From an uncultured Armatimonadetes bacterium (GTDB lineage Bacteria; Armatimonadota; UBA5829; DTJY01), in contig OY970325.1 of NCBI GenBank assembly GCA_963717145.1, forward strand, positions 128,001 to 192,000: 64,000 nt of DNA. Reading direction: 5' to 3'. The notes below the pieces were generated by a model. That model saw only the letters and a list, made by a program, of their open reading frames with translations. It was not told where the DNA came from and ran no database searches. Both the position numbers and the translations under genes were made by a program. Shown here one piece after another: positions 30,305 through 48,143 of the stretch (its first letter is position 1; the number at the start of each line of letters is the position of its first letter).

Positions 30305-30311
30305 GGCCGAG

Positions 30312-31105: not shown

Positions 31106-31329
31106 GACGATCCTCCGAATAGCCGCCGCACTGCGTATCGTGGCCAGGTTCAGTATACCATCTTCCTGATGACTGGGTTGGCGAAGCTCGACCTCGTGAG
31201 GATGCAGGGGTGGCGGGGGTGGGATCATCGAAGCTGGTCAGATACTAGAGCAACCAGGCCGTCCCATAAACAGGGACGGCCTGGGCAAGAACCGTTTGCT
31301 TCTCTAAGCCCACTTGCGTCAGTGAGTCC

Positions 31330-32325
31330 TCACAGTTTGCGGCGACGCACCATCCAGCCGGACATACCCAATAGTCCCGTGACAAGCGTCAGCAGGGCCG
31401 ATGGTTCCGGCACGGGCGCCAGGTTCACTGCGACCATATTTGCAGAGATGAAGTCTCCGAGTTCGTCGGTAGGATCGCCTATACCATCCCAGTTCGAGAG
31501 CGGTGCATGGTCCTCGGCCTTATATGCGCCAGTGTACTTGTAGAACTCGTAACGACGTATAACGGCCTCGGCGTTGTTGCCAACCGCTCCCCCATCTATC
31601 TCCGGAACCCCACCCTCAAGTAGCGCCCATTCTGTCTCGATCTCGACGCCGTCCTGAGGCACTATGCTGTCAGGGCCTGAGATGAGTTCTTCGAGGTCGA
31701 CTGGACGTTCCATTTCGATCACGAATACCTTCATCCATAGCGAATCGGGCAACTGCGGTTCTACTTCAACTGGTTCCGGAACCTGAACTACCGCCTGCAA
31801 GACCGGCGGATTGCCGGGGACCACGGCAGGAACATAGTTCCAGGTCGCCGTAGGTACGGACATCGGAGTCGTTCCGATTCTCTGTAACTGCTGGTCGAGC
31901 CAGAAGTACCGGGTGGCAGTCGGCTGCGATGTAACTGAGAACCCGAAGTGCTCGGCTCCCTTGATATTGACGGCGTAGTGTCCGTTGGTGTTTTGACCGA
32001 CGGTTGGTGCGATGAAACCAAGGGGATCGAAGTTGTATCCTGAGAACTCGATGTGTGTGCCGAATGTCGCCCCACTCGAGTACTCGTGCATGTTCATGTT
32101 GTTGAAGTGCGACGGATATGTCTTATACACCTCGGACGGGTGTAAGCCTTCCAACTCCAGTTCGGCGCCGTATGCGTTGCTGGTGGTGTCATTGAACACA
32201 TCGAAGTTGGACATCGTTCCGGAAATACCCACCAGAGCGAAGGCGGGTGTCAAACCTGTGGCGATGATCACAGCCGCTATGTAGACAGCCGTATTGCGAC
32301 GCACCGCGCCGAGAATGCTAGACAT
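31330..32325 (-). CDS. PEP-CTERM surface protein
   Basis: Signal peptide; VPEPS + TM + RRRK; extra internal VPEP. Confidence 0.88.
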   Translation of the reverse strand: MSSILGAVRRNTAVYIAAVIIATGLTPAFALVGISGTMSNFDVFNDTTSNAYGAELELEGLHPSEVYKTYPSHFNNMNMHEYSSGATFGTHIEFSGYNFDPLGFIAPTVGQNTNGHYAVNIKGAEHFGFSVTSQPTATRYFWLDQQLQRIGTTPMSVPTATWNYVPAVVPGNPPVLQAVVQVPEPVEVEPQLPDSLWMKVFVIEMERPVDLEELISGPDSIVPQDGVEIETEWALLEGGVPEIDGGAVGNNAEAVIRRYEFYKYTGAYKAEDHAPLSNWDGIGDPTDELGDFISANMVAVNLAPVPEPSALLTLVTGLLGMSGWMVRRRKL

Positions 32326-32618
32326 GTGTATACCTCCTCTTGCTACCAGAATAGTTTCGGCCCCGCCGACGCGTGCCGATCTCACTCAAGGTCTTAGCTT
32401 CCCAGATCATCCGCAATACCAAACGCGACCTTTGGAGGGTTTCTTTGCCGGTGCTATATACCTGCTGAATACACGAAACAGTTGCGAAACCCCGGAAGCC
32501 TCGGGGAAGGTTCGCATATGCGGAAACCGGGTAGACAAGAGAGCAAACACTCGGGCACAGGCAACTACCAGGGAAGCGATCGCGAAGACGATCTGCCTGG
32601 ACGAGAAAGGAGTCAGTG

Positions 32619-32975
32619 ATGGGTAAGGCTGAGCACAAGGATTTCAGGTCGCCGGACGAGGTGCGGACCTTCCAAAAGGGCAAACTTGAGCTTCTGAATA
32701 TAGGGGATGGGGTAGTGGGGAGACTCACGCTCGAACCAGGTTGGCGCTGGTCGGAGCACGTCAAACCGATCGCAGGGACGGAATGGTGCGAGGCTCCGCA
32801 TTTTCAATACCAAATCGCCGGACGCCTGCATATCGTGATGTCCGATGGGACTGAGTTCGACTCAGAACCCGGGATGGTCACCAAACTGCCGTCCGGACAC
32901 GACGGCTGGGTGCTGGGCGATGAAGAGGTCGTGCTCATCGACTGGGCGGGGGCCGGCAACTACGCGCAAGCATAG
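32619..32975 (+). CDS. Cupin-domain protein
   Basis: EPGWRWS..C..H..GRL..GHD.WV.GDE. Confidence 0.85.
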   Translation: MGKAEHKDFRSPDEVRTFQKGKLELLNIGDGVVGRLTLEPGWRWSEHVKPIAGTEWCEAPHFQYQIAGRLHIVMSDGTEFDSEPGMVTKLPSGHDGWVLGDEEVVLIDWAGAGNYAQA

Positions 32976-33021
32976 CGCGTGGCCGTCCCAGGGAGTTCGA
33001 AACACAGCCTGCCGACGGCTG

Positions 33022-34518
33022 TCATGGCCTTCGACGTGGCGTCTGCATCTTGCTGCCATCGGCATATGGGATGTTGCCGGACGCATCAGTGGTGTAGCCC
33101 CAGGTATCGAGGTAATACTTCCGGGGGCGAAACGTGTCTCCGATGCGCAGCAGTGCCTTCTGGAGGCGGGCATCCATCTCCTTCTGAAGCGACTCGGAAT
33201 CCGACTGCCCGATGAGATTCTTCATCTGGTACGGATCCTGCTCATCGTCGAACAGCAGAGCGGGACCGTTGATGGTGCGAACGTAAGTGTGCCGATCGGT
33301 GCGAATGGCGCGGTATGGCGGCTCGTTCATGGCGCCGGAGAAGGGCGCCGGGAGCATGTACAGCGCGGTTCGATCCTCTTCGTTTTTCCCGCGAATCAGA
33401 GAAGCCAGACTGTCGCCCTCGAGTCCCTTCGGCTCCGGCACCTTGGCGAGTTCGAACAGGGTCGGCAGAATGTCTACCGTGCCGATGGGCGTCTTGACCA
33501 CGCGTCCCTTGAGTCCCAGTTCGGAGGGATACCGCAGCAGGAAGGGCACGCGAGCTGATTCGTCCCACGGGACTTGCTTGAACGTGGGCCTGAAGCCGTG
33601 AGAGCCAAGCATCTCGCCGTGGTCGGATGTGAACACGAGTATGGTATTCTCGGCCAATCCCGTATCCTCGAGTGTGCGCACTATGTCGCCGATGCAGGTA
33701 TCGAGCGCCGTGCAGTGGCCGTAGTATCCCTGGGCCTCCCTGCGGGAGATCTGCTGCAGGGCATCCGGTACGTTTGTCGGCAACTGAATGCTCTCCGGTG
33801 GGTAGAGCGCCTTGTACTCCTGTGGCGCGGTCTCATGCGGGAAATGGGGCGTACCATAGGAGACAAAGAGCGCGAAGGGCTTCCGGGTCTTGGCATGGTC
33901 CCGCAGATACTTCTGCGCATCTTTGGTCTGCGCGAAGGCGTCGTAGCCCTGCCAGTACTGAATCGCATCCGACCTGCCGGTGTAGTAGTGTGAGTGCGGG
34001 TAATTGTGGTCGCACTCAGCCGCCTTCCAGTATTGGAATCCCTGGCGTCGCTCAGGAGGGATATACGCGGAGCGTCCATGTCCATCCAGGTGCCACTTGC
34101 CTATGTAGCCGGTGTCGTAGCCGGCCTGATCGAGCATCTCAGCCATGCAGAGATGATCTTCGGGCAGGTACAGATCGTTCATGAACATGCCCGTGCTCGT
34201 CGGGTAACGGCCGGTCAGCAATGCGGCGCGATACGGCGTGCAGACAGGGCAGACGGAGATGGCGTTGCGGAAGTTGACGCTCTCGTGTGCCAATCGATCC
34301 AGGTTCGGCGTCTTCACGTTGGGATCACCCTCGTAGCCGGTAGCCGACGCGCGCCACTGGTCTGCGAGCAGGTAGACTATGTTAGGATGCTTCAAAGCCT
34401 TGCCGGTCTCCGCCGCGTTCATTAGTCCTCCCGAGCCGAGAAATCCAAGGCCGATCGCTCCCGCGCGCTGCAGGAAGGATCGCCTGCTTATCGAGTCTTG
34501 CCTATCCTGTCCGGCCAT
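33022..34518 (-). CDS. Tat-exported formylglycine-type sulfatase
   Basis: SRRSFL, PNI..ADQ, CTPYRAALLTG, GKWHL, FTSDHG. Confidence 0.92.
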   Translation of the reverse strand: MAGQDRQDSISRRSFLQRAGAIGLGFLGSGGLMNAAETGKALKHPNIVYLLADQWRASATGYEGDPNVKTPNLDRLAHESVNFRNAISVCPVCTPYRAALLTGRYPTSTGMFMNDLYLPEDHLCMAEMLDQAGYDTGYIGKWHLDGHGRSAYIPPERRQGFQYWKAAECDHNYPHSHYYTGRSDAIQYWQGYDAFAQTKDAQKYLRDHAKTRKPFALFVSYGTPHFPHETAPQEYKALYPPESIQLPTNVPDALQQISRREAQGYYGHCTALDTCIGDIVRTLEDTGLAENTILVFTSDHGEMLGSHGFRPTFKQVPWDESARVPFLLRYPSELGLKGRVVKTPIGTVDILPTLFELAKVPEPKGLEGDSLASLIRGKNEEDRTALYMLPAPFSGAMNEPPYRAIRTDRHTYVRTINGPALLFDDEQDPYQMKNLIGQSDSESLQKEMDARLQKALLRIGDTFRPRKYYLDTWGYTTDASGNIPYADGSKMQTPRRRP

Positions 34519-34717
34519 GTCTTCCTCCCCGGGCGAGCCGATGTCCGGCCTCACCATCTGGTTGGGCGAGCGGCCATGCTTATCCTTCTCCCTTCTCGTT
34601 TCCCGGGAGGACCAGCGGTATGAACTGGGGTCACAGTGAAACTCCAGAAAGAACGAGCCCCCGGCAGTCCGGACTGCCGAGGGCATCGAGTGTGATTCGA
34701 GATGTGAAGCGGAGAGG

Positions 34718-35311
34718 CTATGCCCTACGCCGTCTCATGCCGATGACTGCGAACAATCCTCCGGCCAATACCACAAGCGATGACGGCTCGGGCACGGCGG
34801 TCGCTATGACCCAGGGATAGGCTCCCAGTCCGCCCGCAGCGAAATCAAGAGGATGATTCTTGCTTTGGAACACCTGCCCAATATAGGCCGGCCATGGATT
34901 ACTGCCCTCAACCCACGGATCGCCGGGAGTGTACCACTCCAAGATTGCATTGAAACCGCTCACCTGGGTCGCGCCTGACAACCGGAGGTCTCCGAAACCC
35001 AAGGGATTGGAGGGATTGACCTGACTCAGCGTGATCTGTGTTGGGGTGATGTGGACGAAATACGGGTCGATCACGGCCGAGGCGACGGTGTACGAGGTCG
35101 CCCCCATGAGGGTGAATGAGGCGGAACCGATGACACCCGTCGTCCAGTCGGCGGTGATAGTTCCCGACACGTGGTCGGTACGACCGGTCGCAATGGTATC
35201 GGTCTGGAGGGCAGGGTAGTCGACTATGGAGTAAGCCTGCATTGTCGCCTGCGCAGCCGAACCGATCGCCAGCAGCACGATCGCTGTCATTACTACGAGA
35301 ACGCTCTTCAT
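34718..35311 (-). CDS. PEP-CTERM surface protein
   Basis: Signal peptide; VPEPSS + TM + RRRR. Confidence 0.88.
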   Translation of the reverse strand: MKSVLVVMTAIVLLAIGSAAQATMQAYSIVDYPALQTDTIATGRTDHVSGTITADWTTGVIGSASFTLMGATSYTVASAVIDPYFVHITPTQITLSQVNPSNPLGFGDLRLSGATQVSGFNAILEWYTPGDPWVEGSNPWPAYIGQVFQSKNHPLDFAAGGLGAYPWVIATAVPEPSSLVVLAGGLFAVIGMRRRRA

Positions 35312-35910
35312 CTCTTTCTCCTTCTGATCTACTGGGCCTGTGGGATCTGCCGTCCCCTTGCACGTGCCAGGTGTGCTGGCCCAGATACTCACATAGTATC
35401 ATACGCCAACGGCCTGTCAATCCGACCTTAGTAGGGTTAGTATGCCTGATACGCAGAACCGGTAATATTACCTGCTCTGCCAACACCCAGTGGTCGATTG
35501 CCATGTGAGCAGAGGCCTGCCTGACATGCAGATGAACGCAAACCGACGAGCGTGCACAAGGCCATTGAGGACAACCTGCTAAGCGCATATCTTGCCCACG
35601 TGAACTCACTGACGTGAAGGCCGAATAGGAACGCAGATGAACAGCCCGCTGCCTCCGGCAACGCCGGGCGGGTAGTACTCGAACGAGGGGTTGTCCGCAG
35701 TATTTTGAGAAGAACATCCATCATAATATCGTTTGAATTAGCTACACAATGGAGACAAGTAAACAGATGACGGACTATATTCACCAGGTGCGTAGCTAAT
35801 ACGCAGATGGTGCGGTCGCATCGATGGTGGAGCTGCAATTACAGGGCATCGGAACCTCCACCGTTCCCGAGCCCGGCAGCCTGCATGAGAAGGAAAGGAT
35901 AGGGACTAGA

Positions 35911-37723
35911 GTGGAAAACCGAGTATCAGTGTTCTGCGCTGTGGCGATCATGATGATGATGGTGGTCGCGGCTACTGCTCCACAGGCAGTAGCCGCTATG
36001 GAGGATTTCTCCGGATTTACCACCGGCAATTTTTACCAACAGATTGTCGAGTTTGACTTGGGCTGGTCGCCGGCCAGCACCACCCTATGGGGAGGGGCAT
36101 TTCACCGAATGGCTTCAGGGATTATCGTAGATCTGGGTGGCACGGGCGGCAATGCACTGGAATTGCAGAACGTCGTAACCGGAGCCACCAATCCGATGCC
36201 ATCCTTTGCATCACCGGATCTTGGTCTGGGAAACGGCGTAATAGCCGGAGGGAATACCACGTTCTACTATTCGCTACGGTTCCGTTCATCCGACGACGTG
36301 CGGCCTACATTTGCGAGCGGGCAGGGGTACAACATCAACACGACCATTCGCTCGCAGATCATCCCAGGAGCGGGCGTTGCCAGGTCTGGGTGCCTGCAGT
36401 TTAGGGATAACTATGCGAGAGACGCCGAGGCCGGCAACACGTACACGGTGCGGGGGATTGGATGTGATACAGACTGGGTTTCCCTTCCAACCAGCACGTT
36501 CCTTCCGACCTACGGAACATGGTATCAAGCGTTCATGACTTACCACAGCAACCCCGGTTTCCGGGATGACACGGTGGACTACGTCATCAAGGACGAGTTG
36601 GGCAATACCTTGTGGAGTGAGTTGGGCCAGCCCGGTTGGGAAGGTGCCTGACTACGATGCGAGCGGGAACCCGAACTGGATGCCCGACTTGGGTCACGGC
36701 CTGCCGGAGTTGACGGGCATCGCATTCAACGTCAACTACCTGCCTCCAGGTAATGACTACGACTCGTACCCAGGCGGCATCTACCTGGACAACATGCAGT
36801 GGAGTGTGACTCTGGGTACGATCAACGTCCTCAAGTTCTTCGACCCCAATGGGAATGGCATCCAGGACTCGGGCGAAGTCCCGATGCCTGGCTGGACGAT
36901 CAAGTTGATGAAGATGGACTCAACCGGAGCTTACAATGTGGTCGGCACAGACACAACCGACCCCCAGGGCGAGACCTCGTTTGCCGATCTGGAAAGCGGC
37001 ACCTACGCTGTGACCGAGGAGTATCCCGGTCTGACTTGGACGAAGATCACCAGAGCGCCGGCGTGGTGTGATCGGCAAACCTCTGATGGGAAGTATCTGT
37101 TCACGAAAGCAAGCCTGGATGGAGGCATCTTCGACTTCGATTACTGCGGCTATGCCGGCAACGCCCCTCGCGTTGATGGTATAGTGGTTGGCACGGATGC
37201 GCATGACATCACATTTGGCAATGTGGGCTTGAAGATGGCAAGAGGTGGTTACAGCGTGAGCGATTGGTACAGGAAGAACAACAACTGGCTCAACAATTAT
37301 GAGCCCGCTTGGCGTCATCTCCTGAACGGATTCTGTCTTGTCGGACCTACGGGGAGTAGTTTCGATGTATCTTTGAAGAGTCGCTCCGGGTCTTCGGACT
37401 TCAAGACTTGGCTGCAGAAGGCTCAGGCGGTCAATATGGCTTACACGTTGTCGGCGCAACTGGCCGCAACTGCGCTGAACACGCATTTCAGAGGGCTGGA
37501 TCCCGACACAGCCATATTATTGCCGGCCTCACTGGCAACGTGTTACGGTAGTGAATTCGTGACCATCGGTGATGTGATGGCAGCGGCCGGCACAGCTCTG
37601 TGCAATGACCGATACACTCCCAAGGGTGATCCCAATCGCGCTCCGCAGGAGTGTTTGACGAACATATTGGCAGGGATCAACAACAACTCGTTCCGGTTTC
37701 TCTCACCAACACCGCAGATGTGA
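35911..37723 (+). CDS. Secreted protein with an SdrD-B/prealbumin-like domain, frameshift ~36645
   Basis: Signal peptide; KF.D.NGNG.QD.GE....GWTI.L..T.TD..G..F..L..GTY.V.E. Confidence 0.7.
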
Positions 37724-37752
37724 GCATCAGACTAGTTGTGCCAAAGGACTGA

Positions 37753-37796
37753 CTCACAACGAGTGGGACGGCAAGGAAGCCGTCCCACTCGTTGTG
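37753..37796. terminator. Strong hairpin after the 37723 stop
   Basis: CACAACGAGTGGGACGG..CCGTCCCACTCGTTGTG. Confidence 0.6.
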
Positions 37797-37868
37797 TTAC
37801 TTGCCTTGACCGTGCCGCGCGTGGTTGCATCATCCGCTTGGCAGGGAGAAACTCCATCTTGTGTTCTG

Positions 37869-37930
37869 TGGCGGAGGAACCGTGCCCTCCGCATAAAGTG
37901 CCGGCGGTGTTCTCTCAAGTCCAAGAGACC
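37869..37930. repeat. 62-bp structured repeat, copy A (starts TGGCGGAGG)
   Basis: ~85% identical to 40490-40552. Confidence 0.85.
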
Positions 37931-37972
37931 CATGTGAGTTTCGGGAACAAGCTTCCCGAAACACCGCTCAGC

Positions 37973-39196
37973 TCACTTGGCGTTCTTCTCTAGGCAGAGC
38001 AGTGCTCCCTGGCCCGGCGCGAGCCAGCAGTCTTCGCCTCCAAAGTCATAGGTATTGCCGCTGTACGCATTCACCTTCTGAACCTGCCCATTCTCTTTGA
38101 ATGTAACCCCGAATGGAGTGGACTTGTGGAGGTCCTTGTTCACCACCATCACGTAGGGCTGTCCGCCCGGCCCCTCGAACTCGCCGACAAGAAGGTTATC
38201 GCCGGTTATGGATTTCAGCAGCTTGCTTGTCGATATGCCCGAGCACTCCGCAGGCACCTCGGGATGGTGAAACACATTTGTACTCTTGAGAGTGACGTAG
38301 ACCGGGCAGAGGCGCTGAACCTGCATATTGACGTCACGCAGCATATCCCAGGTCGGCGTCTTGTGCCCGAACGGATCGATCGGAGACAGGCGATAGTTGC
38401 CCCTCGTTCTTCCGAAGTAGGTGAAGTAGCTGAGGCCACGGCCGCCGTAGGCCATAGTCGTGTATGCCTGGAAACGGAAGCCCGCCGGTGTCGGCTCGGC
38501 ATAGTGGAAGTGCGCGCAGGACAGCACGGTGTTCCAGAATGGCAGGTTGTGCTTTAGCGATGCTTTGCGCATGGACTCGAGGTTCCGGTAATAACCGTCC
38601 CGCACCGTCCCATCGTCCATCAGCGGATAGAAATCGTAGCTAAGGAACTGGGGCTGGACGGTTTTGACGAACAACTCAACATAATCATCATAGGTCGGGA
38701 CGCCGCCATACCATTCGGTAGGCGCATAGTTGGGCAATAGATTGATGTAAGCGAGCGCGTTTGGAGCGGCCTTCTTGAACGCCGCAACCCACCTTGCCAA
38801 TCCTGGGAACACATTTCCCGCCGGCTCGTCGCGCAGTGTATAGCCAAACACAGCCTTATGATTGCCGACGCGCTTCACTATGGCTTCCACTCGCCGATCG
38901 ATTTCAGGCCGATCGAGTTTCGCCTCGGCGTCGCCAACACTGCTATACACCAGGCACTGGAGACCTGCCGTGCTAACCGTATCCAGGTCCTCCGGGTGCG
39001 CGAACCCCGCCAGGTTGAACCCGCACTCGCGAATGTCCCTGAGCACATCCACGTCGTCCGGCACATCGTCCCACGGGATAATGGCAAAATCCGATGGTTC
39101 AAGCATAGGTTTCTCCACCGTTGCCGCAATCATGGTTGTAGCCAGGATTGAGGCCAGACCGGCTGTCACTGCCATCAAGAATACTGTCTTTCTCAC
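37973..39196 (-). CDS. Secreted glycoside hydrolase-like TIM-barrel protein
   Basis: Signal peptide, GY.L.DEP, LSYD.Y, G.RGLSYF; family unassigned. Confidence 0.65.
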   Translation of the reverse strand: MRKTVFLMAVTAGLASILATTMIAATVEKPMLEPSDFAIIPWDDVPDDVDVLRDIRECGFNLAGFAHPEDLDTVSTAGLQCLVYSSVGDAEAKLDRPEIDRRVEAIVKRVGNHKAVFGYTLRDEPAGNVFPGLARWVAAFKKAAPNALAYINLLPNYAPTEWYGGVPTYDDYVELFVKTVQPQFLSYDFYPLMDDGTVRDGYYRNLESMRKASLKHNLPFWNTVLSCAHFHYAEPTPAGFRFQAYTTMAYGGRGLSYFTYFGRTRGNYRLSPIDPFGHKTPTWDMLRDVNMQVQRLCPVYVTLKSTNVFHHPEVPAECSGISTSKLLKSITGDNLLVGEFEGPGGQPYVMVVNKDLHKSTPFGVTFKENGQVQKVNAYSGNTYDFGGEDCWLAPGQGALLCLEKNAK

Positions 39197-39233
39197 CCCC
39201 TACCTATCCTTTCCGCGTGCATATAACTGCGGA

Positions 39234-40373
39234 CTAGCTATCGAAGAGTCCAACACTTCGTGCCCTTTCGTAGTTCCCGGTTTCAGCGCTCGAGCAGGGA
39301 CCCCAGACGTAGGACTCGCGAACGGACACCTCCGGGCCGCAGATTTCCAAGGTGGTCTTTATCTTCGCTGTCACGAGATTCATAAGCTCTCGTGCTCCAA
39401 CAGTATCTCCTGATTTGAGACCCAGCTTCTGCAGAACCCGCAGATCCTTCAGTTGGTCTCTGGTATAGATCCATAGGCACATGTGCTTGTCCGGATCGTA
39501 GGCCGTGCAGGGATCACATACCATACAACAGCCTTCATTGAGCGTAACAGGTATGTCGGGGTTGTCCCGCATCTTAACGAGTATCTCGTGCAGATTGTCA
39601 ACATCGAGCGGATTCTCAAGATCGCCCAGACCATAGTGGCACATCAGACACATCAGGTGGTGTGGCCTTATAAACAGCCTGTCCGCTTGCTCTATTCTCT
39701 TACAAGACTCCGCCTTGGCTTTGCGCACTTCCTCTTTTGTTCTTATAGGCAGAAGTGAGTAGGGCCCGCAACCTAACAGGTCCTCTCCGAGGTTCCAACA
39801 TGCGTCCAGGGAGTAGCATCTCTCCCCGCCCTTCTCGCGAGTCTGTCTGTAGTAGTCGGTCCGAGCGTACTCGCACGTAGGCCAATCCTGAGACAGCTCG
39901 AAGTCCTGGTAGCATATTCCTTTGAGGCTCTCTACCTTGAGGAACAGCAACCGCAGCACATCTATGGCTGGGTGTACTGTGTTTGGGCGGATGTCGAGCC
40001 TGCAAAGAACCTCCAGGTCTTTGGCTCTATTGGCGTAGTCTGCCATGCGCGCAGAAAAACCCTCCGGGAGCTGAGCGTGACAGTCCGAGTTTATGTCCAA
40101 ATAATGCGAACGCGCCAGGTCGAGGTCCGCAGTCAGCTTGAGTTGTACGAACGGATGGGAGCGAATCGCCTCCCTTATCGCATCTGTCACGACGCTTCCG
40201 CACGGAGGTCTCTGAGCGCCGGCTGCCGCGCATATGGCGCAGAGCAAATGGTGCGCTCTCAGCTCGAACACTTCTTCGTCAGCACGCGTCTTAGCTTCGC
40301 TGGTGGAACATGTGTCAGGCACATCTACTGTATTGAACACATCCATATCAGGGTGATCTACATCGCGATCCAT
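39234..40373 (-). CDS. Tandem DUF1284-like Cys/His-rich metal-binding protein (start uncertain)
   Basis: Two RxHHLxC motifs, C..C..C, DL.VL..LG. Confidence 0.7.
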   Translation of the reverse strand: MDRDVDHPDMDVFNTVDVPDTCSTSEAKTRADEEVFELRAHHLLCAICAAAGAQRPPCGSVVTDAIREAIRSHPFVQLKLTADLDLARSHYLDINSDCHAQLPEGFSARMADYANRAKDLEVLCRLDIRPNTVHPAIDVLRLLFLKVESLKGICYQDFELSQDWPTCEYARTDYYRQTREKGGERCYSLDACWNLGEDLLGCGPYSLLPIRTKEEVRKAKAESCKRIEQADRLFIRPHHLMCLMCHYGLGDLENPLDVDNLHEILVKMRDNPDIPVTLNEGCCMVCDPCTAYDPDKHMCLWIYTRDQLKDLRVLQKLGLKSGDTVGARELMNLVTAKIKTTLEICGPEVSVRESYVWGPCSSAETGNYERARSVGLFDS

Positions 40374-40489
40374 GCGGTTTCCTCCGACGTTGACGATCTC
40401 TTCGTCGGCTGCATCGTGGATTCCTGCAAGTCTCAAATGCCAAAAGCCCCGGCGATCACGCCGAGGCTTCTAGCCTCTAACTTGTAGAC

Positions 40490-40552
40490 TGGTGGAGGAG
40501 TTGTTCCCTCCGCAAAAAGTGACGGCGGTTTTTCTCTCAAGTCCAAGAGACC
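40490..40552. repeat. 63-bp structured repeat, copy B (starts TGGTGGAGG, identical to the last 9 nt of tmRNA)
   Basis: Matches copy A and 41206-41214. Confidence 0.85.
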
Positions 40553-40584
40553 ATAGAAGGACTCCGCTCCAGTTCTCCCTTAGC

Positions 40585-41049
40585 TCATTCGTTAGCCAAA
40601 TCCCACCCAAAACCCAGCGGCGGGTCGTCATCCGTGCTCGGGTTGCCACCGGTCGACGCGTAGAGCGCGATAGCAGGCTCGTTATTGACGCCGGTAGTCA
40701 GAAACATCTTCCGGTGTCCTTCGTTACGGCATACGTCGATCATTGCCTGCATTACCATCTTGCCGATTCCCTCTCGACGCCGGCTCGAGATCACGCCAAC
40801 TTCGTGCACATACATCATACGCGTCCTGCCCCAGATGCACGGCATGCTGTAGCCTAACGCAAAACCGAGAGGCGCATCCCCCTCGTATGCCGCGACAAGG
40901 TAGTTACTATCCACAGCCAGAAAACCGGCGATGAACTCCGTGTCGATACGAATGTCCTCGCCGTCTTCCTCCAGTTTGCACTTATTCACGACATCGGCAG
41001 CCAGCCGCTCATCGCCTGGGAGCAGTCTTCTCGCTATGATCCCGGTCAT
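40585..41049 (-). CDS. GNAT acetyltransferase
   Basis: V....RREGIG, N.PAIALY.S.GG. Confidence 0.88.
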   Translation of the reverse strand: MTGIIARRLLPGDERLAADVVNKCKLEEDGEDIRIDTEFIAGFLAVDSNYLVAAYEGDAPLGFALGYSMPCIWGRTRMMYVHEVGVISSRRREGIGKMVMQAMIDVCRNEGHRKMFLTTGVNNEPAIALYASTGGNPSTDDDPPLGFGWDLANE

Positions 41050-41205
41050 TGCGCACCATCTTACCTTTCGATTCTTGCAAAACGCACCTAAGTTGTAACG
41101 ACCTCCAGCGCTATACAAAGCAAGACCACGCTCATATCGTCAGGACATGAGCGTGGTGCGGCTCACTCACATGAACAAACAGAGACGATTAATAACTAAT
41201 ATTGA

Positions 41206-41558
41206 TGGTGGAGGCGCGGGGACTCGAACCCCGGTCCAAAGAATAGCGCACATAAGCATCTACGAGCGTATCCCGAGATTTGTTTTCTCGCGCTTCGGTC
41301 TCCCTCGGGCAGGATACCTCTGCGCCAGCTCGATTTAGTGTCCCCTTCAGGCTCCCCGAGCGAGGTCCGTCAGGTAATCCGGCATTAGTTACGCCTGGAT
41401 CCGATCCGGCCGGAGGGGATCGGGCAGACGGGCTACCTTATTAGGCGGCCAGTGCGTAGCTGTTTGTGCCGTTTATAGGCTTCCCGCTTTTAACGAGGCC
41501 AGCGGGTCCTCGGCGCGCAACTCATGCTGCTATCGCTCTGTCAACTCCATTCGCCCCC
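41206..41558 (-). ncRNA. ssrA: tmRNA; tag reading (A)GTNSYALAA at 41441-41470
   Basis: 5' GGGGGCG pairs with 3' CGCCTCC-ACCA; T-arm GGTTCGAGTCC; ATAAAC before resume codon; YALAA then TAATAA. Confidence 0.95.
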
Positions 41559-41632
41559 ACATTGTTCAGCCCGCACATCTGAGGTCGGATAGAAGAGTAT
41601 CAAGGTGCGTTTCGCGGGCTCTCTACGCTCAC

Positions 41633-41661
41633 ATTATACCCGAAACCCCGCCTTTCGTCAA
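41633..41661 (-). promoter_or_regulatory. ssrA promoter TTGACG-N17-TATAAT
   Basis: Consensus boxes ~75 bp upstream of the mature 5' end. Confidence 0.7.
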
Positions 41662-41739
41662 TGGATTTGGAGTTCCGAAGCCCGCACATCGTATGGTATA
41701 CTGGGTTGGGATGACATCAGCACACACAGGAGTCCTGCA

Positions 41740-42108
41740 ATGGAAGACTGGGTTCTTGGCAAACCAAAGCCGGTAATGAACGGATTGGCACTCTGGTCGT
41801 ACCGACTGGCAACCTGGCCGCTGGCCGTTGGCGTGACCGCGGTGATCCTCATTTTCCTGGCGACATCGGTGCCCTGGTTGGCGAGCGGCTTGGTTGACGA
41901 CATCTTCCTTTGGGTAGCCATGGCGCTGCTCCTGTATTCATTGGTACTGGCTCCGCTGGGCCTGCTGCTCGGTATTGCCGCCCTGGTTCAGACCGCGCGC
42001 TCTGAGCGATACTGTGGGCGCGAGTATGCGAAGGTCGCGGTGATCGTGGGCCTGATAGTCTGCGCATACGTCATTCTGATGTACGTGGAAGGTTGGCCGA
42101 GGACATGA
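41740..42108 (+). CDS. Small membrane protein (DUF4190-like)
   Basis: TMs with LG..AL.Q....GR..A..A.I.G. Confidence 0.6.
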   Translation: MEDWVLGKPKPVMNGLALWSYRLATWPLAVGVTAVILIFLATSVPWLASGLVDDIFLWVAMALLLYSLVLAPLGLLLGIAALVQTARSERYCGREYAKVAVIVGLIVCAYVILMYVEGWPRT

Positions 42109-42839
42109 ACGAGAGCCGCGAACAGCGTAGCATGTTCAGCGTCCCGGCAGTGTCGTCTCTATGGGCGGCACTTGCCGGCTTCGGCCTGCCGACCGCACTC
42201 CCGTTCGCCATCCACGGGTGGGAACCCGGTTCAGTCGGGATGGTTGCGGTGCTATCTGGTGTGGTCGGCCTCATCCAGGCCCGTCGCAAGCTTATTCGAC
42301 GGAAAGACTCTTACTATGCTGCGGGAGGCGTGATCCTCGGTTGTGTGCTGATCGTCATGTGTGGATACGGTTTCTTCGGCCCTTATGGGCACAGCCCGCG
42401 GAGCGCGTGCTCGAACAACCTGAAGCAGATCGGTATGGCGGTTGAGGTGTACAGAGACAATCACAGCGGCAAGTTTCCGCCGGTCGGAAGCTGGAACAGC
42501 GCCGTGATCAAGTACTCGGACCACAAGAGCATCCTGTACTGTCCCGAAGCCGACAAGTCGATGCCGTCGTATGCTATGAACAGCCGGCTCTCCGGAGTTA
42601 CTATCGACGATGTGGCGGACCCATCGGCGACTGTTCTGGTGTTCGAGTCCATCCCGGGCAAGGACCTCTTCGGCGGGCCGGGGCTTCTCCCATCACCAGC
42701 ACGCCATGGCAGGTCCGGTGATCGCTCCTATGTCGTGCTTTTCTGCGACGGACACGTCAAATCGCTGAACAATGAAGAGATCGGTGGGCTCAACTGGGAC
42801 CCTAAGAAGAAAGGCAAACCTGCTTTGCCAAGGAGTTGA
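42105..42839 (+). CDS. Membrane protein with DUF1559 / H-X9-DG-type domain
   Basis: C.NNLKQIG.A, SYAMN, RHG..LFCDGHVK. Confidence 0.78.
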   Translation: MNESREQRSMFSVPAVSSLWAALAGFGLPTALPFAIHGWEPGSVGMVAVLSGVVGLIQARRKLIRRKDSYYAAGGVILGCVLIVMCGYGFFGPYGHSPRSACSNNLKQIGMAVEVYRDNHSGKFPPVGSWNSAVIKYSDHKSILYCPEADKSMPSYAMNSRLSGVTIDDVADPSATVLVFESIPGKDLFGGPGLLPSPARHGRSGDRSYVVLFCDGHVKSLNNEEIGGLNWDPKKKGKPALPRS

Positions 42840-42841
42840 AA

Positions 42842-43198
42842 ATGACAACCGACCAGATGAGAGCCCCGTGTGGGATCGACTGCTCGACCTGTGCGATACA
42901 CATCGCCGCCCAGGATCCGGCCGCGGCCGAGAAGCTCGCCGCGGAGTGGCGTGCAGGAGGTATGGAGAAAGCCCAAGCCGGCTGGTTCAAGTGCCAGGGA
43001 TGCCGCGGCGACCGAAGCCTCTGCTGGTGTGACGACTGCAAGGTCTACGCCTGCGCCGTCGAGCAGAAGGGACTCGATCTCTGCTCCGAGTGCGAAGAGT
43101 TCCCGTGCCGGCAGTACATCGACTGGATCGGCCCGGATGCGCACCACCAGGCGGCCTTCGAGTGGCTGAAGTCGACATGCCGCCGGGAGAACCAATGA
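42842..43198 (+). CDS. DUF3795-like Cys-rich protein
   Basis: APCGIDC..C, C.GCR, C....CA, CSEC.EFPC. Confidence 0.78.
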   Translation: MTTDQMRAPCGIDCSTCAIHIAAQDPAAAEKLAAEWRAGGMEKAQAGWFKCQGCRGDRSLCWCDDCKVYACAVEQKGLDLCSECEEFPCRQYIDWIGPDAHHQAAFEWLKSTCRRENQ

Positions 43199-43740
43199 GA
43201 GAACGAATCATCATCAAACCGTATGATCCTGAGTGGCCGGAAGTGTTTCGGCAACTCGGCGCATCTCTCCGGACCGCTGTGGGTGACGTCGCCCTGCGGA
43301 TCGATCACATCGGCTCGACGTCCATCCCAGGCATGGATGCCAAGCCGATCATCGACTTGCAGATATCGGTCGCCTCGCTCGATCCGGTGGACCCTTTCCG
43401 GATCCCGCTAGAGACCGTCGGTTTCGAGTGGAGAGCGGACAACCCTGAGCTGACGAAACGCTATTTCCGCGAGAGACCGGGAACGCGCCGGACGCATATC
43501 CACGTAAGGAAGCATGGGAGTTTCTCCCAGCAATTCCCGCTGCTCTTCCGTGACTACCTGCGCGCTCATCCGGACGAAGTGCGACCATACGCCGAGATGA
43601 AGTACCGACTCGCAGAACAATATGGCGAAGACCGGGAAGGCTACACCATCGCAAAGGGTGATTTCGTGTGGGCGGTCATCCGGAAGGCCGACGAGTGGGC
43701 GCAGGACATCGGCTGGGAGCCGGGTCCTTCGGATGCATAG
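43195..43740 (+). CDS. GrpB/UPF0157 family protein
   Basis: DHIGSTSIPG.DAKPIID, HIHV, FRDYLR. Confidence 0.88.
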   Translation: MRERIIIKPYDPEWPEVFRQLGASLRTAVGDVALRIDHIGSTSIPGMDAKPIIDLQISVASLDPVDPFRIPLETVGFEWRADNPELTKRYFRERPGTRRTHIHVRKHGSFSQQFPLLFRDYLRAHPDEVRPYAEMKYRLAEQYGEDREGYTIAKGDFVWAVIRKADEWAQDIGWEPGPSDA

Positions 43741-43752
43741 TAAGGAGAGATC

Positions 43753-44718
43753 ATGACTAACATATACCTGCTCTGTCTTGTTTTGCTCGCATCGGCGGCG
43801 GTGGCACAGGATGCCCCGAAGCCGCCGAAGCCTGTTCTGCCTCCCGCGCCTGAGGGCGTCATCATCCGGCAGGACGTGCCGTATCTCGCGCCTGGTCGAG
43901 ACGAGAAGCTCGACCTCTACCTTCCTGCCGACCGCCCGAAGGATGCCCGCTCGCCGGCGGTCGTCATGATCCACGGCGGAGGATGGGTCGGTGGCGACAA
44001 GGCCGAAGGGCGCGGGTACAACATATGCGCGACTCTGGCGCTGGCGGGATACGTCTGTGTGAGCGTCAACTATACCCTCGAACGCGGGAAGTGTTGGCCG
44101 CTCAACCTCTACGACTGCAAGAATGCCGTGCGCTGGCTTCGTGTCAATGCCGACAAGTATGGGATCGATGCCGACCACATCGGAGTCATCGGCGGATCCG
44201 CGGGAGGCCATCTTGCGCTCATGGTGGCCTACACGAACCACGTGCCGTTCCTCGAACCGGCGTCTCCGTATCCGCTCGTGTCCGACAAGGTCCAGTGCGT
44301 CGTCGATATGTATGGCATCACGAATCTGCTTACCCGCCAGAGGATCGATGAACAGGGCAACCCGACCGGTGTGACCTTCACCAGTCAGGCTCTGATGACG
44401 AAGACGCGCGATGAGGACCCGGAAGCATGGAAGCTCGCCTCTCCGACGTACCATGTGTCGAAGCGGAACTGCCCTCCGACTCTCATTCTTCACGGCACGG
44501 CCGATGCGACCGTCGACCGCGATCAGGCCACCGAACTGGCGAAGAAACTGGAGGAGTGTGGTGTCGAGCACCAACTCATGATGATCGAGGGAGTCGGCCA
44601 TACCTTCGACCTCCAGACCTGGGCGAGGAAGCCGCTGCCGAACGACCTTCGCCCGATTGTGACTGCCTTCTTCGACAAGCACCTGAAGAGGCAGTCAGCG
44701 GCGACCGATGAACAGTAG
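43753..44718 (+). CDS. Secreted alpha/beta hydrolase (esterase)
   Basis: HGGGW, GGSAGG, HG..D..V, GH. Confidence 0.9.
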   Translation: MTNIYLLCLVLLASAAVAQDAPKPPKPVLPPAPEGVIIRQDVPYLAPGRDEKLDLYLPADRPKDARSPAVVMIHGGGWVGGDKAEGRGYNICATLALAGYVCVSVNYTLERGKCWPLNLYDCKNAVRWLRVNADKYGIDADHIGVIGGSAGGHLALMVAYTNHVPFLEPASPYPLVSDKVQCVVDMYGITNLLTRQRIDEQGNPTGVTFTSQALMTKTRDEDPEAWKLASPTYHVSKRNCPPTLILHGTADATVDRDQATELAKKLEECGVEHQLMMIEGVGHTFDLQTWARKPLPNDLRPIVTAFFDKHLKRQSAATDEQ

Positions 44719-45586
44719 TGATATGGAAGAATACGCACAGACCGCAACGGAAGAGATAGCGGACGAGCAGACGGCAACCGAGGAGGCTGAGATCGAGCAT
44801 CGGAAGCCGAAGCTGGAGAGCAGGCTCGGCGGACTCGGCGTGCTCCTGGTACTCCTGTTCAAGTTCAAGGGCATCATCCTGCTCGTGCTGGCAAAGGCCA
44901 AGTTCCTGCTCATCCCGCTGAAGTACCTGAAGGTCGGCCAAGTCTTCACCACGATGGGCAGCATGCTCGTCAGCGTCGCGGTCGATGCCATGCTCTGGGG
45001 CTGGTGGTTCGCGGCCGGATTCGTCGCGCTGCTGTTTGTGCACGAGATGGGCCATGTGGTCGCTCTCCGGGCGAAAGGGATCAAGGCAAGCGCGCCGATA
45101 TTCATCCCCTTCATGGGTGCGGTGATTGGCCTGAAGGAGATGCCTCACGACGCTAAGTCGGAGGCCGAGGTCGGGATCGCCGGGCCGCTGCTGGGGACGC
45201 TCGGGGCGTTTGTCTGTCTGCAGATCGGACATCTGACGGGCATGCAGTTGCTCGTCCGGCTCGCGTACGTCGGCTTCTTCCTGAACCTCTTCAACCTGCT
45301 TCCGGTTCTCCCGCTCGACGGCGGTCGGGTGATGGCGGCCATATCGCCGAAGGTCTGGCTCGCGGGGATGGTGCTCGCGGTGCTGCTCTTCATCTGGAGT
45401 CACAGCCCGATCTTTCTGATACTGGTCGTCATGTCCGTTGGCCGGATGTGGCACACGATCAGGTCGAAGCCCGAAGACCTCGATTACTACAATGTCCCCC
45501 GCGAAGTCAGAATCCGCATGACACTCCTCTATTTCGGCCTCGCCGCGTACCTCGGTGTGATGCTCATGCAGCTTCGGCATCCGTAG
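44708..45586 (+). CDS. Site-2 protease (M50)
   Basis: HEMGH, AGP, NLLP.LPLDGG. Confidence 0.9.
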   Translation: MNSSDMEEYAQTATEEIADEQTATEEAEIEHRKPKLESRLGGLGVLLVLLFKFKGIILLVLAKAKFLLIPLKYLKVGQVFTTMGSMLVSVAVDAMLWGWWFAAGFVALLFVHEMGHVVALRAKGIKASAPIFIPFMGAVIGLKEMPHDAKSEAEVGIAGPLLGTLGAFVCLQIGHLTGMQLLVRLAYVGFFLNLFNLLPVLPLDGGRVMAAISPKVWLAGMVLAVLLFIWSHSPIFLILVVMSVGRMWHTIRSKPEDLDYYNVPREVRIRMTLLYFGLAAYLGVMLMQLRHP

Positions 45587-45640
45587 GCCGTCAGTCGGTT
45601 TTGTGGTAGAATGAAGCATCAAGTGACATAGGGAGTCATC

Positions 45641-46102
45641 GTGAGACGTACTGAGCGAGTATATGTCGATACATCGGTGTTCGGCGGAGTCTTTGACGAG
45701 GAGTTCGCCAAGCCGAGCAGGGCGTTCTTCGATATGGTTCGGGCGGGGCGCGTCGAACTGGTTGTGTCGGCGCTCGTCGAAGATGAGGTGACTCGGGCTC
45801 CTTCCGAGGTTAGCGGATTGCTTGATGAGATGCTGTCCCTCGCCGATGTAGTAACTCCTACCGATGAAGCAGTATCACTCATGCAGGCTTACATTGCCGC
45901 TGACGTGCTGTCCGGACGATGGCAGGATGACGCTCTTCATGTGGCGCTGGCTACAGTGTCGGGTTGCACACTAATCGTGAGCTGGAACTTCAGGCATATC
46001 GTGAACTACCGAAGAATCCCGAAGTACAATGCAGTGAACGCACTGAACGGCTATGCAGCCATAGCGATCCATTCTCCGTTGGAGGTGACGGGTGATGAAT
46101 AA
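45641..46102 (+). CDS. PIN-domain protein
   Basis: YVDTSV, DALHVA.A, SWNFRHIVN. Confidence 0.85.
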   Translation: MRRTERVYVDTSVFGGVFDEEFAKPSRAFFDMVRAGRVELVVSALVEDEVTRAPSEVSGLLDEMLSLADVVTPTDEAVSLMQAYIAADVLSGRWQDDALHVALATVSGCTLIVSWNFRHIVNYRRIPKYNAVNALNGYAAIAIHSPLEVTGDE

Positions 46103-46271
46103 GCCGAAAAAGAAGTTTGATTGCGTGGAGATGATGCACCAAGGCGCAGAGTATGTGCGGGAACAGACCAAGAGCATGTCGCCGGAACAGGAGTTGGAGT
46201 ACTGGCGTAAGAGGACGGAAGAGCTGTTGGCACGGAAACAAGGGCTCTCCAAGGTCCGCAAGGCCTCGTGA
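46095..46271 (+). CDS. Small 58-aa protein (MNKPKKKFDCVEM...), putative PIN partner; not in the ORF track
   Basis: GGAGG RBS, overlaps the PIN stop and the next start. Confidence 0.65.
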   Translation: MNKPKKKFDCVEMMHQGAEYVREQTKSMSPEQELEYWRKRTEELLARKQGLSKVRKAS

Positions 46272-46612
46272 TGGACAAGTACGGCTGGGCTACGCGTGAC
46301 TGGGACAACTATGATTGGGACAGCATGTCACCCGAGGAACTTGAGGCATACCGAAATATGCCTCCGGGGGAAAAGCTTCGCCTTGCTATGCAGGTGAGCG
46401 AAGCTGCCCGAGAGCGAATGAAGGCGGACATCCGTGCAGAGAATCCCGACTTCACCGAGGAAGAGGTGTTCAAGGAGTTCATACGACGCACCCTTCCGGC
46501 AGATCTCGTCAAGAAGGTCTACGGTTGGGAAGGATATCCGAGCGACAAGGAAGACGAGAGGGAGACGTGCAGGAAGCTACGTGAGCAACTCAATCGTACC
46601 GTGGACAAGTGA
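46271..46612 (+). CDS. Hypothetical protein, antitoxin-like
   Basis: Translationally coupled; M.P.EKLRLA..IRA.NP...EEEV. Confidence 0.55.
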   Translation: MDKYGWATRDWDNYDWDSMSPEELEAYRNMPPGEKLRLAMQVSEAARERMKADIRAENPDFTEEEVFKEFIRRTLPADLVKKVYGWEGYPSDKEDERETCRKLREQLNRTVDK

Positions 46613-48059
46613 ATACGAAGATTACCTCCGCGATGAGTCGCGGCGGGTGGGGAGCGCCGACTCGATCTCGTTCCCGACGAGCGAGGCCGATGTCGTCGAG
46701 ATCGTGAAGGCGGTGAGCGAGCGGCGCGGGAAGATCACCGTTCAAGGCGCTCGGACCGGCATCGTGGCCGGCGCGGTCCCCCAGGGCGGTCACATCCTCA
46801 ACCTCAGCCGCATGAACAAGATTGGCGATGTGAACGGCGACTCCATCACAGTGCAACCCGGCGCGATCCTCGACAACATCCGCGAGGCGATCGAGAAAGA
46901 AGGGCTCTTCTTCCCTCCGGATCCCACGGAGTCCACGGCATCGATCGGCGGGATGGTCGCGTGCAACGCATCCGGCGCGCTCAGCTTTCACTACGGATCG
47001 ACCCGCAACTGGGTGCAGTCCCTCCGTATGGTGCTCAGCGACGGCGACATCATCGGTCTCCGCAGAGGCGAGTGCTCGGCGCGGGGGCGATCGTTCTGCC
47101 TGACGACTGAAGGCGGCCGGACCATCAGCGGCGACCTTCCGACATACGCCGTTCCCAGCGTCAAGTCCGCGGCGGGCTACTACGTCGCTCAGGACATGGA
47201 CATGCTCGATTTGCTGATCGGCATGGAGGGCACGCTCGGCATCATCACCGAGATCGAGTTGAGGCTGATCCCCAGGCCCGGCGCGATCAACGGACTGACC
47301 GTCTTCCTGCCCGATGAGGACTCGGCGTTGAAGCTCGTCCGAATCCTACGCGAGGAGTCAAACCCGGTCGCCATCGAGTTCTTCGACCACGATGCTCTCG
47401 ATCTGCTTCGGCGGATGAAGACCGAGTCATCGGCGTTCGAGAAGATCCCGGCGCTCAAGCCGGAGTTCCATACGGCCATCTACGCCGAGTTCCATGCCGA
47501 CACCGACGAGGAGATCGAGGAGCCGATCATGGCGATCATGGAGGCGATCATCGAGCTTGGTGGCAGCGACGAAGACACCTGGTACGCGACCAACGACCGC
47601 GAACTCGAGCCGCTCAAGGCGTTCCGTCATGCGACTCCCGAGGCGGTCAACCTGCTGATCGACCAGCGCAAGCGTGACTGCCCCGAACTGACCAAGCTCG
47701 GGACCGACATGTCCGTTCCCGACGCCCACATGGAGTCGGTCATCGCCATGTACGACGCCGATCTTGCGGAGAACGGGCTGGAGTCGGTGATGTTCGGGCA
47801 TATCGGAAACAATCACGTCCACGTGAACATCCTGCCCAGGAGCATGGACGAATACGACACGGGCAAGGCGCTCTACCTCGCATGGGCTGAGCGGATCGTG
47901 GGGTGGGGCGGATCGGTCTCCGCGGAACACGGGATCGGCAAGATCAAGGTCCCGTTCCTCCGCATGATGTACGGTGACGATGCCATCGCCGAGATGCGCG
48001 CCCTCAGGTCCCTCTTCGACCCCGATGCGATCCTCAATCCCGGCGACCTCTTTCCGTAG
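46581..48059 (+). CDS. FAD-binding oxidoreductase (GlcD / D-lactate dehydrogenase-like)
   Basis: FPPDP..ASIGG..NASG, G.EGTLG, FGHIGN.HVH, SAEHGIG, LNPG. Confidence 0.9.
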   Translation: MSNSIVPWTSEYEDYLRDESRRVGSADSISFPTSEADVVEIVKAVSERRGKITVQGARTGIVAGAVPQGGHILNLSRMNKIGDVNGDSITVQPGAILDNIREAIEKEGLFFPPDPTESTASIGGMVACNASGALSFHYGSTRNWVQSLRMVLSDGDIIGLRRGECSARGRSFCLTTEGGRTISGDLPTYAVPSVKSAAGYYVAQDMDMLDLLIGMEGTLGIITEIELRLIPRPGAINGLTVFLPDEDSALKLVRILREESNPVAIEFFDHDALDLLRRMKTESSAFEKIPALKPEFHTAIYAEFHADTDEEIEEPIMAIMEAIIELGGSDEDTWYATNDRELEPLKAFRHATPEAVNLLIDQRKRDCPELTKLGTDMSVPDAHMESVIAMYDADLAENGLESVMFGHIGNNHVHVNILPRSMDEYDTGKALYLAWAERIVGWGGSVSAEHGIGKIKVPFLRMMYGDDAIAEMRALRSLFDPDAILNPGDLFP

Positions 48060-48143
48060 GGGAGGGCTTCAACGCCCTCCCGCCGCGTCGGCGGGGAACT
48101 TGTCCGACCCCCATGCGTAGTAAGATTGGTGGAGGCACAAGCA

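Follow-up and report, generated by a model that had tools for sequence, protein, structure and literature searches.

Why should the last bases of a tmRNA gene recur, on the same strand, behind each of two small gene units that follow it? The question is raised by a locus of an uncultured Armatimonadetes bacterium, in a stretch of 64,000 nucleotides (contig OY970325.1, positions 128,001 to 192,000; hereafter the window) in which the tmRNA gene ssrA is followed by units that each end in a conserved sequence, which we call the site. The genome that holds the window (5.37 Mb) is designated G000, related genomes are numbered from G001, and f1 to f5 are the families of the class. The original prediction, made from the letters alone, had proposed that minimal cassettes without an integrase are added serially at ssrA by a recombinase acting in trans. 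Our analysis makes it moderately probable that integrase-free units were inserted one after another directly behind the CCA end of ssrA by site-specific recombination, with the enzyme encoded elsewhere.

In the window, ssrA lies on the minus strand at 41206-41558 and is intact by both ARAGORN and Rfam (RF00023, 156.5 bits, E 3e-62; tag peptide GTNSYALAA). Its last 9 nt, including the CCA (41206-41214), are common to every site copy, and 33 of 34 tmRNA 3′ ends in the class finish in this word. As originally noticed, a perfect copy of the 9-mer stands at 40490 and one with a single mismatch at 37869, and the repeat to which it belongs is real, since each of its two long words stands in 2 places in the window against 0 expected from 100 shuffles. 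The repeats delimit units of 716 bp and 2621 bp, close to the sizes first given (~0.7 and ~2.6 kb), and all their features lie on the minus strand. Unit 1 (40490-41205) consists of a ~92-nt start module with a terminator-like hairpin (~41113-41205), an open reading frame (ORF) for a GNAT acetyltransferase (40585-41118; Pfam Acetyltransf_1, E 1e-16; 177 aa as listed, start uncertain) and site copy 2 (40490-40552), which closes the unit, matches as a pattern and scores 72 bits (E 5e-21) with R1, a sequence-only model built from 33 copies of the site. Unit 2 (37869-40489) opens with 7-nt tandem repeats and a terminator-like hairpin (~40440-40489), followed by an ORF with a DUF1284 domain (39234-40436; PF06935, E 1e-7; 400 aa as listed), a 407-aa ORF with a signal-like N-terminus (37973-39196), a 10-bp hairpin seen by folding (37935-37960) and, at the distal end of the array, site copy 1 (37869-37930; R1 64 bits, E 2e-18). 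The DUF1284 ORF has its probable start at the ATG at 40373; its product is 90% identical to a protein of G007 in an alignment that begins at residue 22, and the 407-aa product is 89% identical to its partner there. Pfam agrees with the cargo first proposed for GNAT and DUF1284, but the label “glycoside hydrolase-like” for the 407-aa ORF did not stand, as that ORF matches no Pfam family at E<=0.001. The other two expectations were borne out: all three ORFs are co-oriented with the tmRNA, and none of the recombinase matches of G000 (3 tyrosine, 7 resolvase-domain and 8 Y1) falls inside the window. Outside the array, positions 37780-37868 weakly resemble the native 3′ flank of ssrA (E 0.008), and the gene beyond unit 2 is convergent. 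Unit 1, which adjoins ssrA, is putatively the newest of the two.

Comparison with relatives places the boundaries to the base and reveals discrete units gained or missing singly at the CCA end, much as predicted. In G007, which belongs to another genus, unit 2 stands directly after ssrA (L037) and the GNAT unit is missing to the base. DNA homology between G007 and the window starts one base after the 9-mer, with the tmRNA T arm to its left in G007 and site copy 2 to its left in the window; the GNAT unit is therefore exactly one extra unit. The same homology halts at 37868, one base beyond copy 1, and G007 then carries a unit with an AraC-GNAT fusion and a second site copy. In a further pair, G009 (f1) and G035 (f4), a 7.2-kb unit is 93% identical and ends in the site, and the two genomes diverge from the base after the CCA. 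Finally, environmental run X3 includes a contig in which position 40489 is followed by 41206, so that exactly 716 bp are skipped, with 9 letters that fit both sides; the contig comes from a relative, has a shorter side of 47 letters and may not be independent of G007. Because relatives differ unit by unit at the exact CCA end, serial insertion of units at ssrA is supported by sequence comparison. Exact boundaries and unit-wise differences are thus read directly from the genomes, and so are the spread of units between lineages and their recurrence at ssrA. Unit 2 DNA matches that of G007 at 91-97%; for the contrast with ssrA the figures are 91-94% in the unit and 77.6% in the tmRNA genes of the two genomes, and this far greater likeness of the unit points to its recent horizontal transfer. 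Homologues of the DUF1284 protein (75-78% protein identity) occur in four other Armatimonadota genomes with neither a site nor a tmRNA gene nearby, so the cassette gene has ordinary chromosomal relatives. The 7.2-kb block (L038 468-7655 and L039 7696-14889) holds genes for a KAP-family NTPase, a 384-aa protein and a ThiF-JAB fusion, and is a defence-like island travelling with the site.

The site itself is 57-60 nt long, its final 9 nt equal to the ssrA 3′ end. In an alignment of 33 distinct copies the mean column identity is 83%, and the near-invariant parts are the 3′ terminal word and a short word by the 5′ edge. The tmRNA gene contains this 5′ word too, immediately 5′ of its T arm (41234-41241), so that the site, at the level of its letters, looks like a tmRNA 3′ region whose T arm has been swapped for ~40 unrelated bases. 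It had been described as a structured element with two hairpins. These can be drawn, yet they find no backing in the folds: 70-nt RNA folds on either strand are not better than shuffles (z -0.96, +0.16, -0.61 and +0.05), RNAalifold on the 33 copies retains just one 4-bp stem, column shuffles pair the terminal helix about as often (78.5%) as the real alignment does (78.0%), compensatory changes are not in excess, and the first hairpin is found in the alignment in the two window copies alone. In 131-nt DNA folds, copy 1 gives z -2.5 and -2.2 over a stretch that includes the stable hairpin at 37935-37960; copy 2 (z -0.6 and -1.1) and a copy from G035 (-0.5 and 0.0) are not above shuffles. Hairpins near-identical to that at 37935-37960 stand before many copies in other genomes when these are aligned with their flanks. 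The site has no known Rfam match: with Rfam 15 at E<=1, positions 30000-50000 match tmRNA and, overlapping it, one sub-threshold permuted-tmRNA family.

G000 contains 3 good copies of the site and 1 degenerate copy (blastn and R1), which agrees with the original view that it is not a genome-wide repetitive extragenic palindrome (REP). Copy 3, at 4,992,464, lies behind an ankyrin-repeat protein gene on the coding strand (blastn over the 5.37-Mb genome), and the degenerate copy 4 lies at 4,181,839 (R1). No older degenerate copy was found further out, at 24000-37800 of the window, with filters off (best E 0.09). Copy 3 was also considered as the severed far end of the ssrA array, which found no support: the gene behind it has no tblastn match among the tested loci, which were mostly the tmRNA loci of relatives. 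The 18-mer at 40558-40575, with 23 matches in the genome, was discarded: it resembles a multicopy insertion sequence, with one mismatch, by chance. That insertion sequence is present in 23 places of G000 with identical ~110-nt stretches (for example C1:751689-751800), none of them in the window.

Beyond this genome, a DNA search of 41 relatives recovered the site at 80-95% identity in other genera and families. R1 gives 86 matches in 24 of the 53 genomes of the class, with 1 to 18 per genome; by family, G000 excluded, the positive genomes are 6/10 in f1, 0/6 in f2, 4/6 in f3, 11/28 in f4 and 2/2 in f5. A sample of 151 genomes from the phylum yielded 9 positives, 6 from the class and 3 among 137 genomes of other classes, and the 70-nt site had no match at E<=0.01 in 72,556 plasmid or 50,697 phage records. 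The copies form co-oriented arrays with 27 spacings of 399-3492 bp (median 1892 bp), share the orientation of their flanking genes, and without exception stand 30-130 nt past a stop codon on the coding strand; solitary copies exist as well, such as copy 3 here and the single copy of G005. Units often carry 2-3 genes, and some units have genes on both strands. Their cargo is of accessory type and includes restriction-modification, HicB, ThiF-JAB, BrxC/D-like and SNF2-Mrr proteins, GNATs, Cass2, glycosidases and many family-less ORFs. The Cass2 domain, that of an integron-associated effector-binding protein, was seen in a G009 ORF beside a site copy (L039 5367-6890; E 1e-8). Two further stretches of the window, 32509-32980 (82%) and 30324-30653 (85%), match DNA in or beside site-bounded units of G032 (L034 7317-7809 and L040 6119-6448), with no site copy detectable near them in the window.

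How closely is the site tied to ssrA? G000, G004, G007, G016, G023, G040 and G050 have their first copy 0.7-3.5 kb past the CCA and on the strand of ssrA. The link originally proposed therefore recurs, in 7 genomes of 3 families, but it is not exclusive, for many copies lie elsewhere; G032 and G009 contain many arrays with no tmRNA gene nearby. The first good copy of G032 is reached 16.5 kb past ssrA, with two degenerate copies in between and a cassette-start type right after the CCA. Nine element-bearing assemblies fall outside this judgement, 5 with the tmRNA gene 5-1564 bases from the contig end on its 3′ side and 4 with no assembled tmRNA gene. Contigs stop 5-68 bases past the tmRNA gene in G045:C45, G006:C55, G036:C25 and G046:C67, as if repeats there interrupted the assembly; the site would account for the tendency of assemblies of these genomes to stop just past ssrA. 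Two other tmRNA loci deserve mention. In G033 (L087, C10; tmRNA gene at 7561-7916), which has no R1 site, 7-nt tandem repeats of the unit-start type follow the tmRNA gene directly, and the contig ends 243 bases further on. Genome G013, of family f2 and likewise with no site, carries on contig C2 two full-length tmRNA matches 4.4 kb apart on the same strand (766414-766781 and 771131-771498; 170.8 and 175.4 bits).

Insertion between the CCA and the old flank predicts that the native flank of ssrA should be found after site copies. The presumed native flank, ~90 nt with a terminator hairpin, stands directly after ssrA in 12 of the 30 tmRNA loci that the search of the class recovered, and also in 4 more loci (G009, G012, G025 and G037). 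An nhmmer profile built from the 12 flanks, which come from genomes with no insertion, matches the DNA that follows five site copies, two in G035 and one each in G009, G004 and G026, with E values over the five of 6e-13, 4e-10, 4e-7, 4e-7 and 2e-5. In G000, the flank of copy 3 gives E 1e-3 and that of copy 1 is weak (E 8e-3). The native-flank type also opens at least one internal unit, in G035, and is therefore not a pure marker of the array end. Two further kinds of start are found repeatedly: a run of 7-nt tandem repeats and then a hairpin, seen behind ssrA and behind site copies, and the ~92-nt module with a hairpin and T-rich tail, which opens the GNAT unit and is found behind ssrA in G023, G028 and G040 and behind a site copy of G040. 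In each of the three start types a terminator-like hairpin stands no more than ~70 nt from the CCA, so that a newly inserted unit would supply ssrA with a new terminator.

Which enzyme could act at the site? G040 (C77) encodes a 393-aa tyrosine integrase at 2.9 kb from a site copy, and a frameshifted relative, 79% identical, lies 1.3 kb from a site copy in G008. The suggestion that copies might be found next to recombinases thus holds for these two genomes but not as a general association: the family turns up in 7 of the 24 genomes that bear the element and in 5 of the 29 that do not (Fisher p 0.34), at 10 further loci of the family no site lies within about 6 kb, and we rejected it as the general enzyme. 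A terminase gene adjoins the integrase in G040. The large serine recombinases, 55-91% identical among seven loci, lie 1-6 kb past ssrA in G008, G009, G012, G025 and G037. In these five genomes, of three families, they are convergent with the tmRNA gene and followed by a small gene for a 136-148-aa partner (L122 1020-2998, L123 874-2674, L124 4051-5837, L125 92-2133 and L126 5034-7078). Beside them stand genes for DUF2924 and an M15 peptidase in G009 and for an M15 peptidase in G008, and the recombinase is probably a prophage integrase at a prophage end. This family goes only loosely with the site, being present in 14 of the 24 genomes with the element and in 7 of the 29 without it (Fisher p 0.02, with no correction for kinship). 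The native flank is still directly after ssrA in the five serine-integrase loci; those prophages therefore did not insert at the CCA end, and the family is a weak candidate. In nine genomes, the 393-aa tyrosine integrase and a serine recombinase of a 54-60% subgroup lie 15-26 kb apart on one contig (G040:C77, G048:C4, G037:C46, G001:C8, G029:C49, G016:C9, G014:C67, G051:C55 and G008:C1), and the pair look like the opposite ends of a single prophage-like element. Two Xer-like enzymes are present in each genome of the class, and the matches to the integron integrase (IntI) model are all Xer-like, split around the IntI-specific insert. Overall, no trans-acting recombinase of the kind originally predicted emerged, and the two families tested fit poorly.

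Taken together, these observations suggest a route of insertion. A free, probably circular, unit of 0.4-3.5 kb, closed by its own 57-60-nt site, would recombine via that site, its partner being either the end of ssrA or a second site copy, under the action of an enzyme encoded elsewhere. The crossover would fall inside the shared 9 nt, the sole stretch where it can lie, leaving all recognisable site sequence 5′ of it. Insertion would occur exactly after the tmRNA CCA, so that the tmRNA gene would stay intact, the newest unit would lie next to ssrA, the native 3′ flank would be displaced outward and the terminator-like hairpin at the start of the unit would then follow ssrA. The circular intermediate, the kind of enzyme and any continuing activity are the parts of this route that we infer. 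A bolder extension, which we put forward tentatively and consider possible but doubtful, is that Armatimonadota possess an integron-like gene-capture platform made from different parts: the 3′ end of ssrA, an essential gene, would serve as fixed entry point, the 57-60-nt site mimicking the tmRNA end as cassette site, and a non-IntI recombinase encoded off the array would shuttle defence and accessory units of 0.4-3.5 kb between genera and families.

Several observations weigh against insertion at ssrA by an enzyme encoded elsewhere. The ORFs of the 9 ssrA-linked loci yielded no recombinase domain, gene or recognisable fragment. No IntI exceeded the cut-off of the model (NCBIfam TIGR02249, 265 bits) in G000, G004, G009, G032 and G037, the best match reaching 94 bits, and G041, G035 and G027 show two tyrosine recombinases each, of the ubiquitous Xer-like kind, and nothing else of that superfamily. 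The serine family has no ortholog in G000, where the best match is about 33-35% identical and frameshifted. Nine element-bearing genomes (G005, G008, G009, G012, G031, G036, G037, G045 and G046) keep the native flank directly after ssrA and have their copies elsewhere, and 2 of the 4 copies in G000 are distant from ssrA. The boundary evidence consists of three genome pairs and one short contig (47-nt side), and in the single case of unit 1 the loss may have occurred by slippage between 9-nt repeats. Lastly, neither circles nor excision products of this organism appeared among the contigs of the sequencing runs matched, each of which covers at most 17% of the words of the stretch.

How else might such arrays have come about? 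They could be a graveyard of classical ssrA islands or prophages whose integrases were deleted, the remaining units being fixed or mobilised in cis with a complete neighbour (accretion). The tandem ssrA islands of Dehalococcoides, part of which have no integration module according to PMC3146451, set a precedent, and the 393-aa integrase of G040 and its frameshifted G008 relative, 1.3-2.9 kb from a site copy, would suit such an origin, as would the prophage-type serine integrases 1-6 kb past ssrA in the five genomes named above. However, the 9 ssrA-linked arrays retain neither a recombinase gene nor any recognisable piece of such a gene, unit size is very small (median 1.9 kb), and decay would not keep a site 80-95% identical across families. 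Nor do the two integrase families fit this origin, with the distribution of the tyrosine integrase (7/24 against 5/29, p 0.34; 0/10 further loci with a site nearby) and the native flank retained at the five serine-integrase loci, where no insertion at the CCA end took place. We regard decay as unlikely. An RNA element accounts for other features: the site would mimic the tmRNA 3′ end and give cassette mRNAs a processed, hairpin-protected CCA end, or would act as a terminator signal, and the array look would be a by-product of its use in 3′ untranslated regions. Every copy indeed stands 30-130 nt past a stop codon on the coding strand and ends in the terminal 9 nt of tmRNA, a terminator-like hairpin usually comes next, as with ssrA, and the short word 5′ of the T arm (41234-41241) is shared. 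Yet an RNA function leaves the exact homology break at the CCA end unexplained, and it meets a site that belongs to no Rfam family, folds like its shuffles, has no covariation and shows A-U in the helix where tmRNA has its G-U identity pair. Contigs from an RNA library that cross the CCA end into the start of the next unit also speak against it, weakly, as DNA may be in the library. The CCA-ended RNA that had been named as the alternative in the original prediction is thereby weakened, and we consider it improbable. In metatranscriptome run X20 (window 40489-40493), contigs join the site to the 7-nt-repeat starts of other units; these are transcripts or contaminating DNA.

Could the site instead be a miniature selfish repeat that settled in the spacers between ordinary chromosomal genes, such as a miniature inverted-repeat transposable element (MITE), a REP or a REPIN-like element? 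The 8 Y1-transposase matches in the genome and the solitary copies (copy 3; the single copy of G005) would be in keeping with this, but a REP, REPIN or MITE is at odds with just 3-4 copies in the genome (3 good, 1 degenerate), all oriented with the flanking genes, and with the three informative comparisons, in which genes and site are gained or lost together and never the 60 nt alone. Unit DNA is also far more similar between genera than the tmRNA gene, and the distant DUF1284 homologues (75-78%, four genomes) have no site nearby. This explanation is very improbable. A different origin is suggested by the reverse transcriptases of retroplasmids, which start or switch template at 3′ CCA ends: such an enzyme might have joined units head to tail at their CCA ends before they entered the chromosome by recombination. 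That units begin exactly after a CCA and end exactly in one is the sole evidence for it. Terminator-like hairpins and tandem repeats at the unit start would be odd for a transcript 5′ end, some units carry genes on both strands, and no reverse transcriptase was seen, although no search for one was made. We find this origin scarcely credible.

If serial insertion of integrase-free units behind ssrA is true, what would follow from it? To our knowledge, integrons are the only well-understood means by which bacteria stockpile small integrase-free gene units at one site. The ssrA arrays would then be a second, independently arisen system, and such an organisation of accessory genes would have evolved more than once, here in a host phylum that is little studied and mostly uncultured. 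The compact site (~60 nt plus the tmRNA end) could be used to fish out the recombinase, which, if found, would target a site that every bacterium has. The conserved site could also serve as a PCR handle for the cassette content of Armatimonadota in metagenomes.

Among known systems, the closest case is that of the tandem ssrA islands of Dehalococcoides. According to McMurdie et al. (2011; PMC3146451), these islands lie in tandem behind a single tmRNA gene, are bounded by 20 bp that repeat the 3′ end of ssrA, measure several kb to tens of kb and vary in content between strains; 16 of 31 carry an integration module with a serine recombinase next to ssrA, and the rest were proposed to be mobilisable in cis. 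The Armatimonadota arrays resemble them in their tandem units behind ssrA and in the lack of an integrase that part of the islands share. They differ in having 9 nt from ssrA, rather than 20 bp, within an otherwise non-tmRNA site of 57-60 nt, a median unit of 1.9 kb, no recombinase in any of 9 arrays, and arrays that also occur off ssrA. Of the marks of an ssrA island, we find an intact ssrA, a 9-nt end repeat that closes each unit and a displaced native flank, and in the 9 ssrA-linked loci no recombinase domain that would represent an integrase at the island's own boundary.

Cis-mobilisable elements (CIMEs) that accrete at tRNA-type sites (reviewed in PMC5704250; the concept is also cited in PMC3146451) have in most cases arisen by decay from kin of a resident conjugative or mobilisable element, which provides their integrase. 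Like CIMEs, the units are flanked by attachment sites and carry no integration or transfer genes; unlike most CIMEs, they come with no such partner found here. The tycheposons of Prochlorococcus, as set out in bioRxiv 10.1101/2020.12.28.424599, are cargo elements at tRNA and tmRNA genes that have their own integrases; newcomers push older elements inward, partial tRNA copies stand between neighbours, and remnants are scattered. Stacking at tRNA or tmRNA genes is common to both systems, whereas tycheposons encode integrases and have repeats that are partial copies of the target. Integrative mobile elements exploiting Xer (IMEX) are integrase-free and can stand in tandem at one chromosomal site, the host Xer recombinases acting at dif. 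Here the target is ssrA instead of dif, and the site is not dif-like by eye.

With integrons and clusters of attC sites lacking integron-integrases (CALIN; PMC4889954), the arrays share small, mostly co-oriented accessory units, a site at the 3′ end and one entry point at the head. Nearly all recognised sequence lies 5′ of the crossover in both, and both have cargo with defence genes, toxin-antitoxin systems, acetyltransferases and a Cass2-domain protein. In form the array and its one point of entry, at the end of ssrA, agree with an integron, but units often hold 2-3 genes, some on the opposite strand, and the entry point is no attI beside intI. In other respects the two part company: the site is conserved in sequence and not in structure, with no long imperfect palindrome; entry takes place at an RNA gene's end and not at an attI by an integrase gene; and a unit often comprises two genes or more and has a terminator-like start of its own. 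The arrays are therefore integron-like, as first suggested, and not integrons, with no IntI in the five genomes searched (best 94 bits against 265) and no attC-type palindrome in the alignment, RNAalifold, covariation or DNA folds, where R″/R′ boxes were judged by eye. We found no description of such arrays in the literature searched, which does not take in subscription journals. From all the systems compared, they are set apart by very small units, a long non-tmRNA site strictly conserved across families, arrays that hold no integrase where examined, and the occurrence of further arrays away from ssrA.

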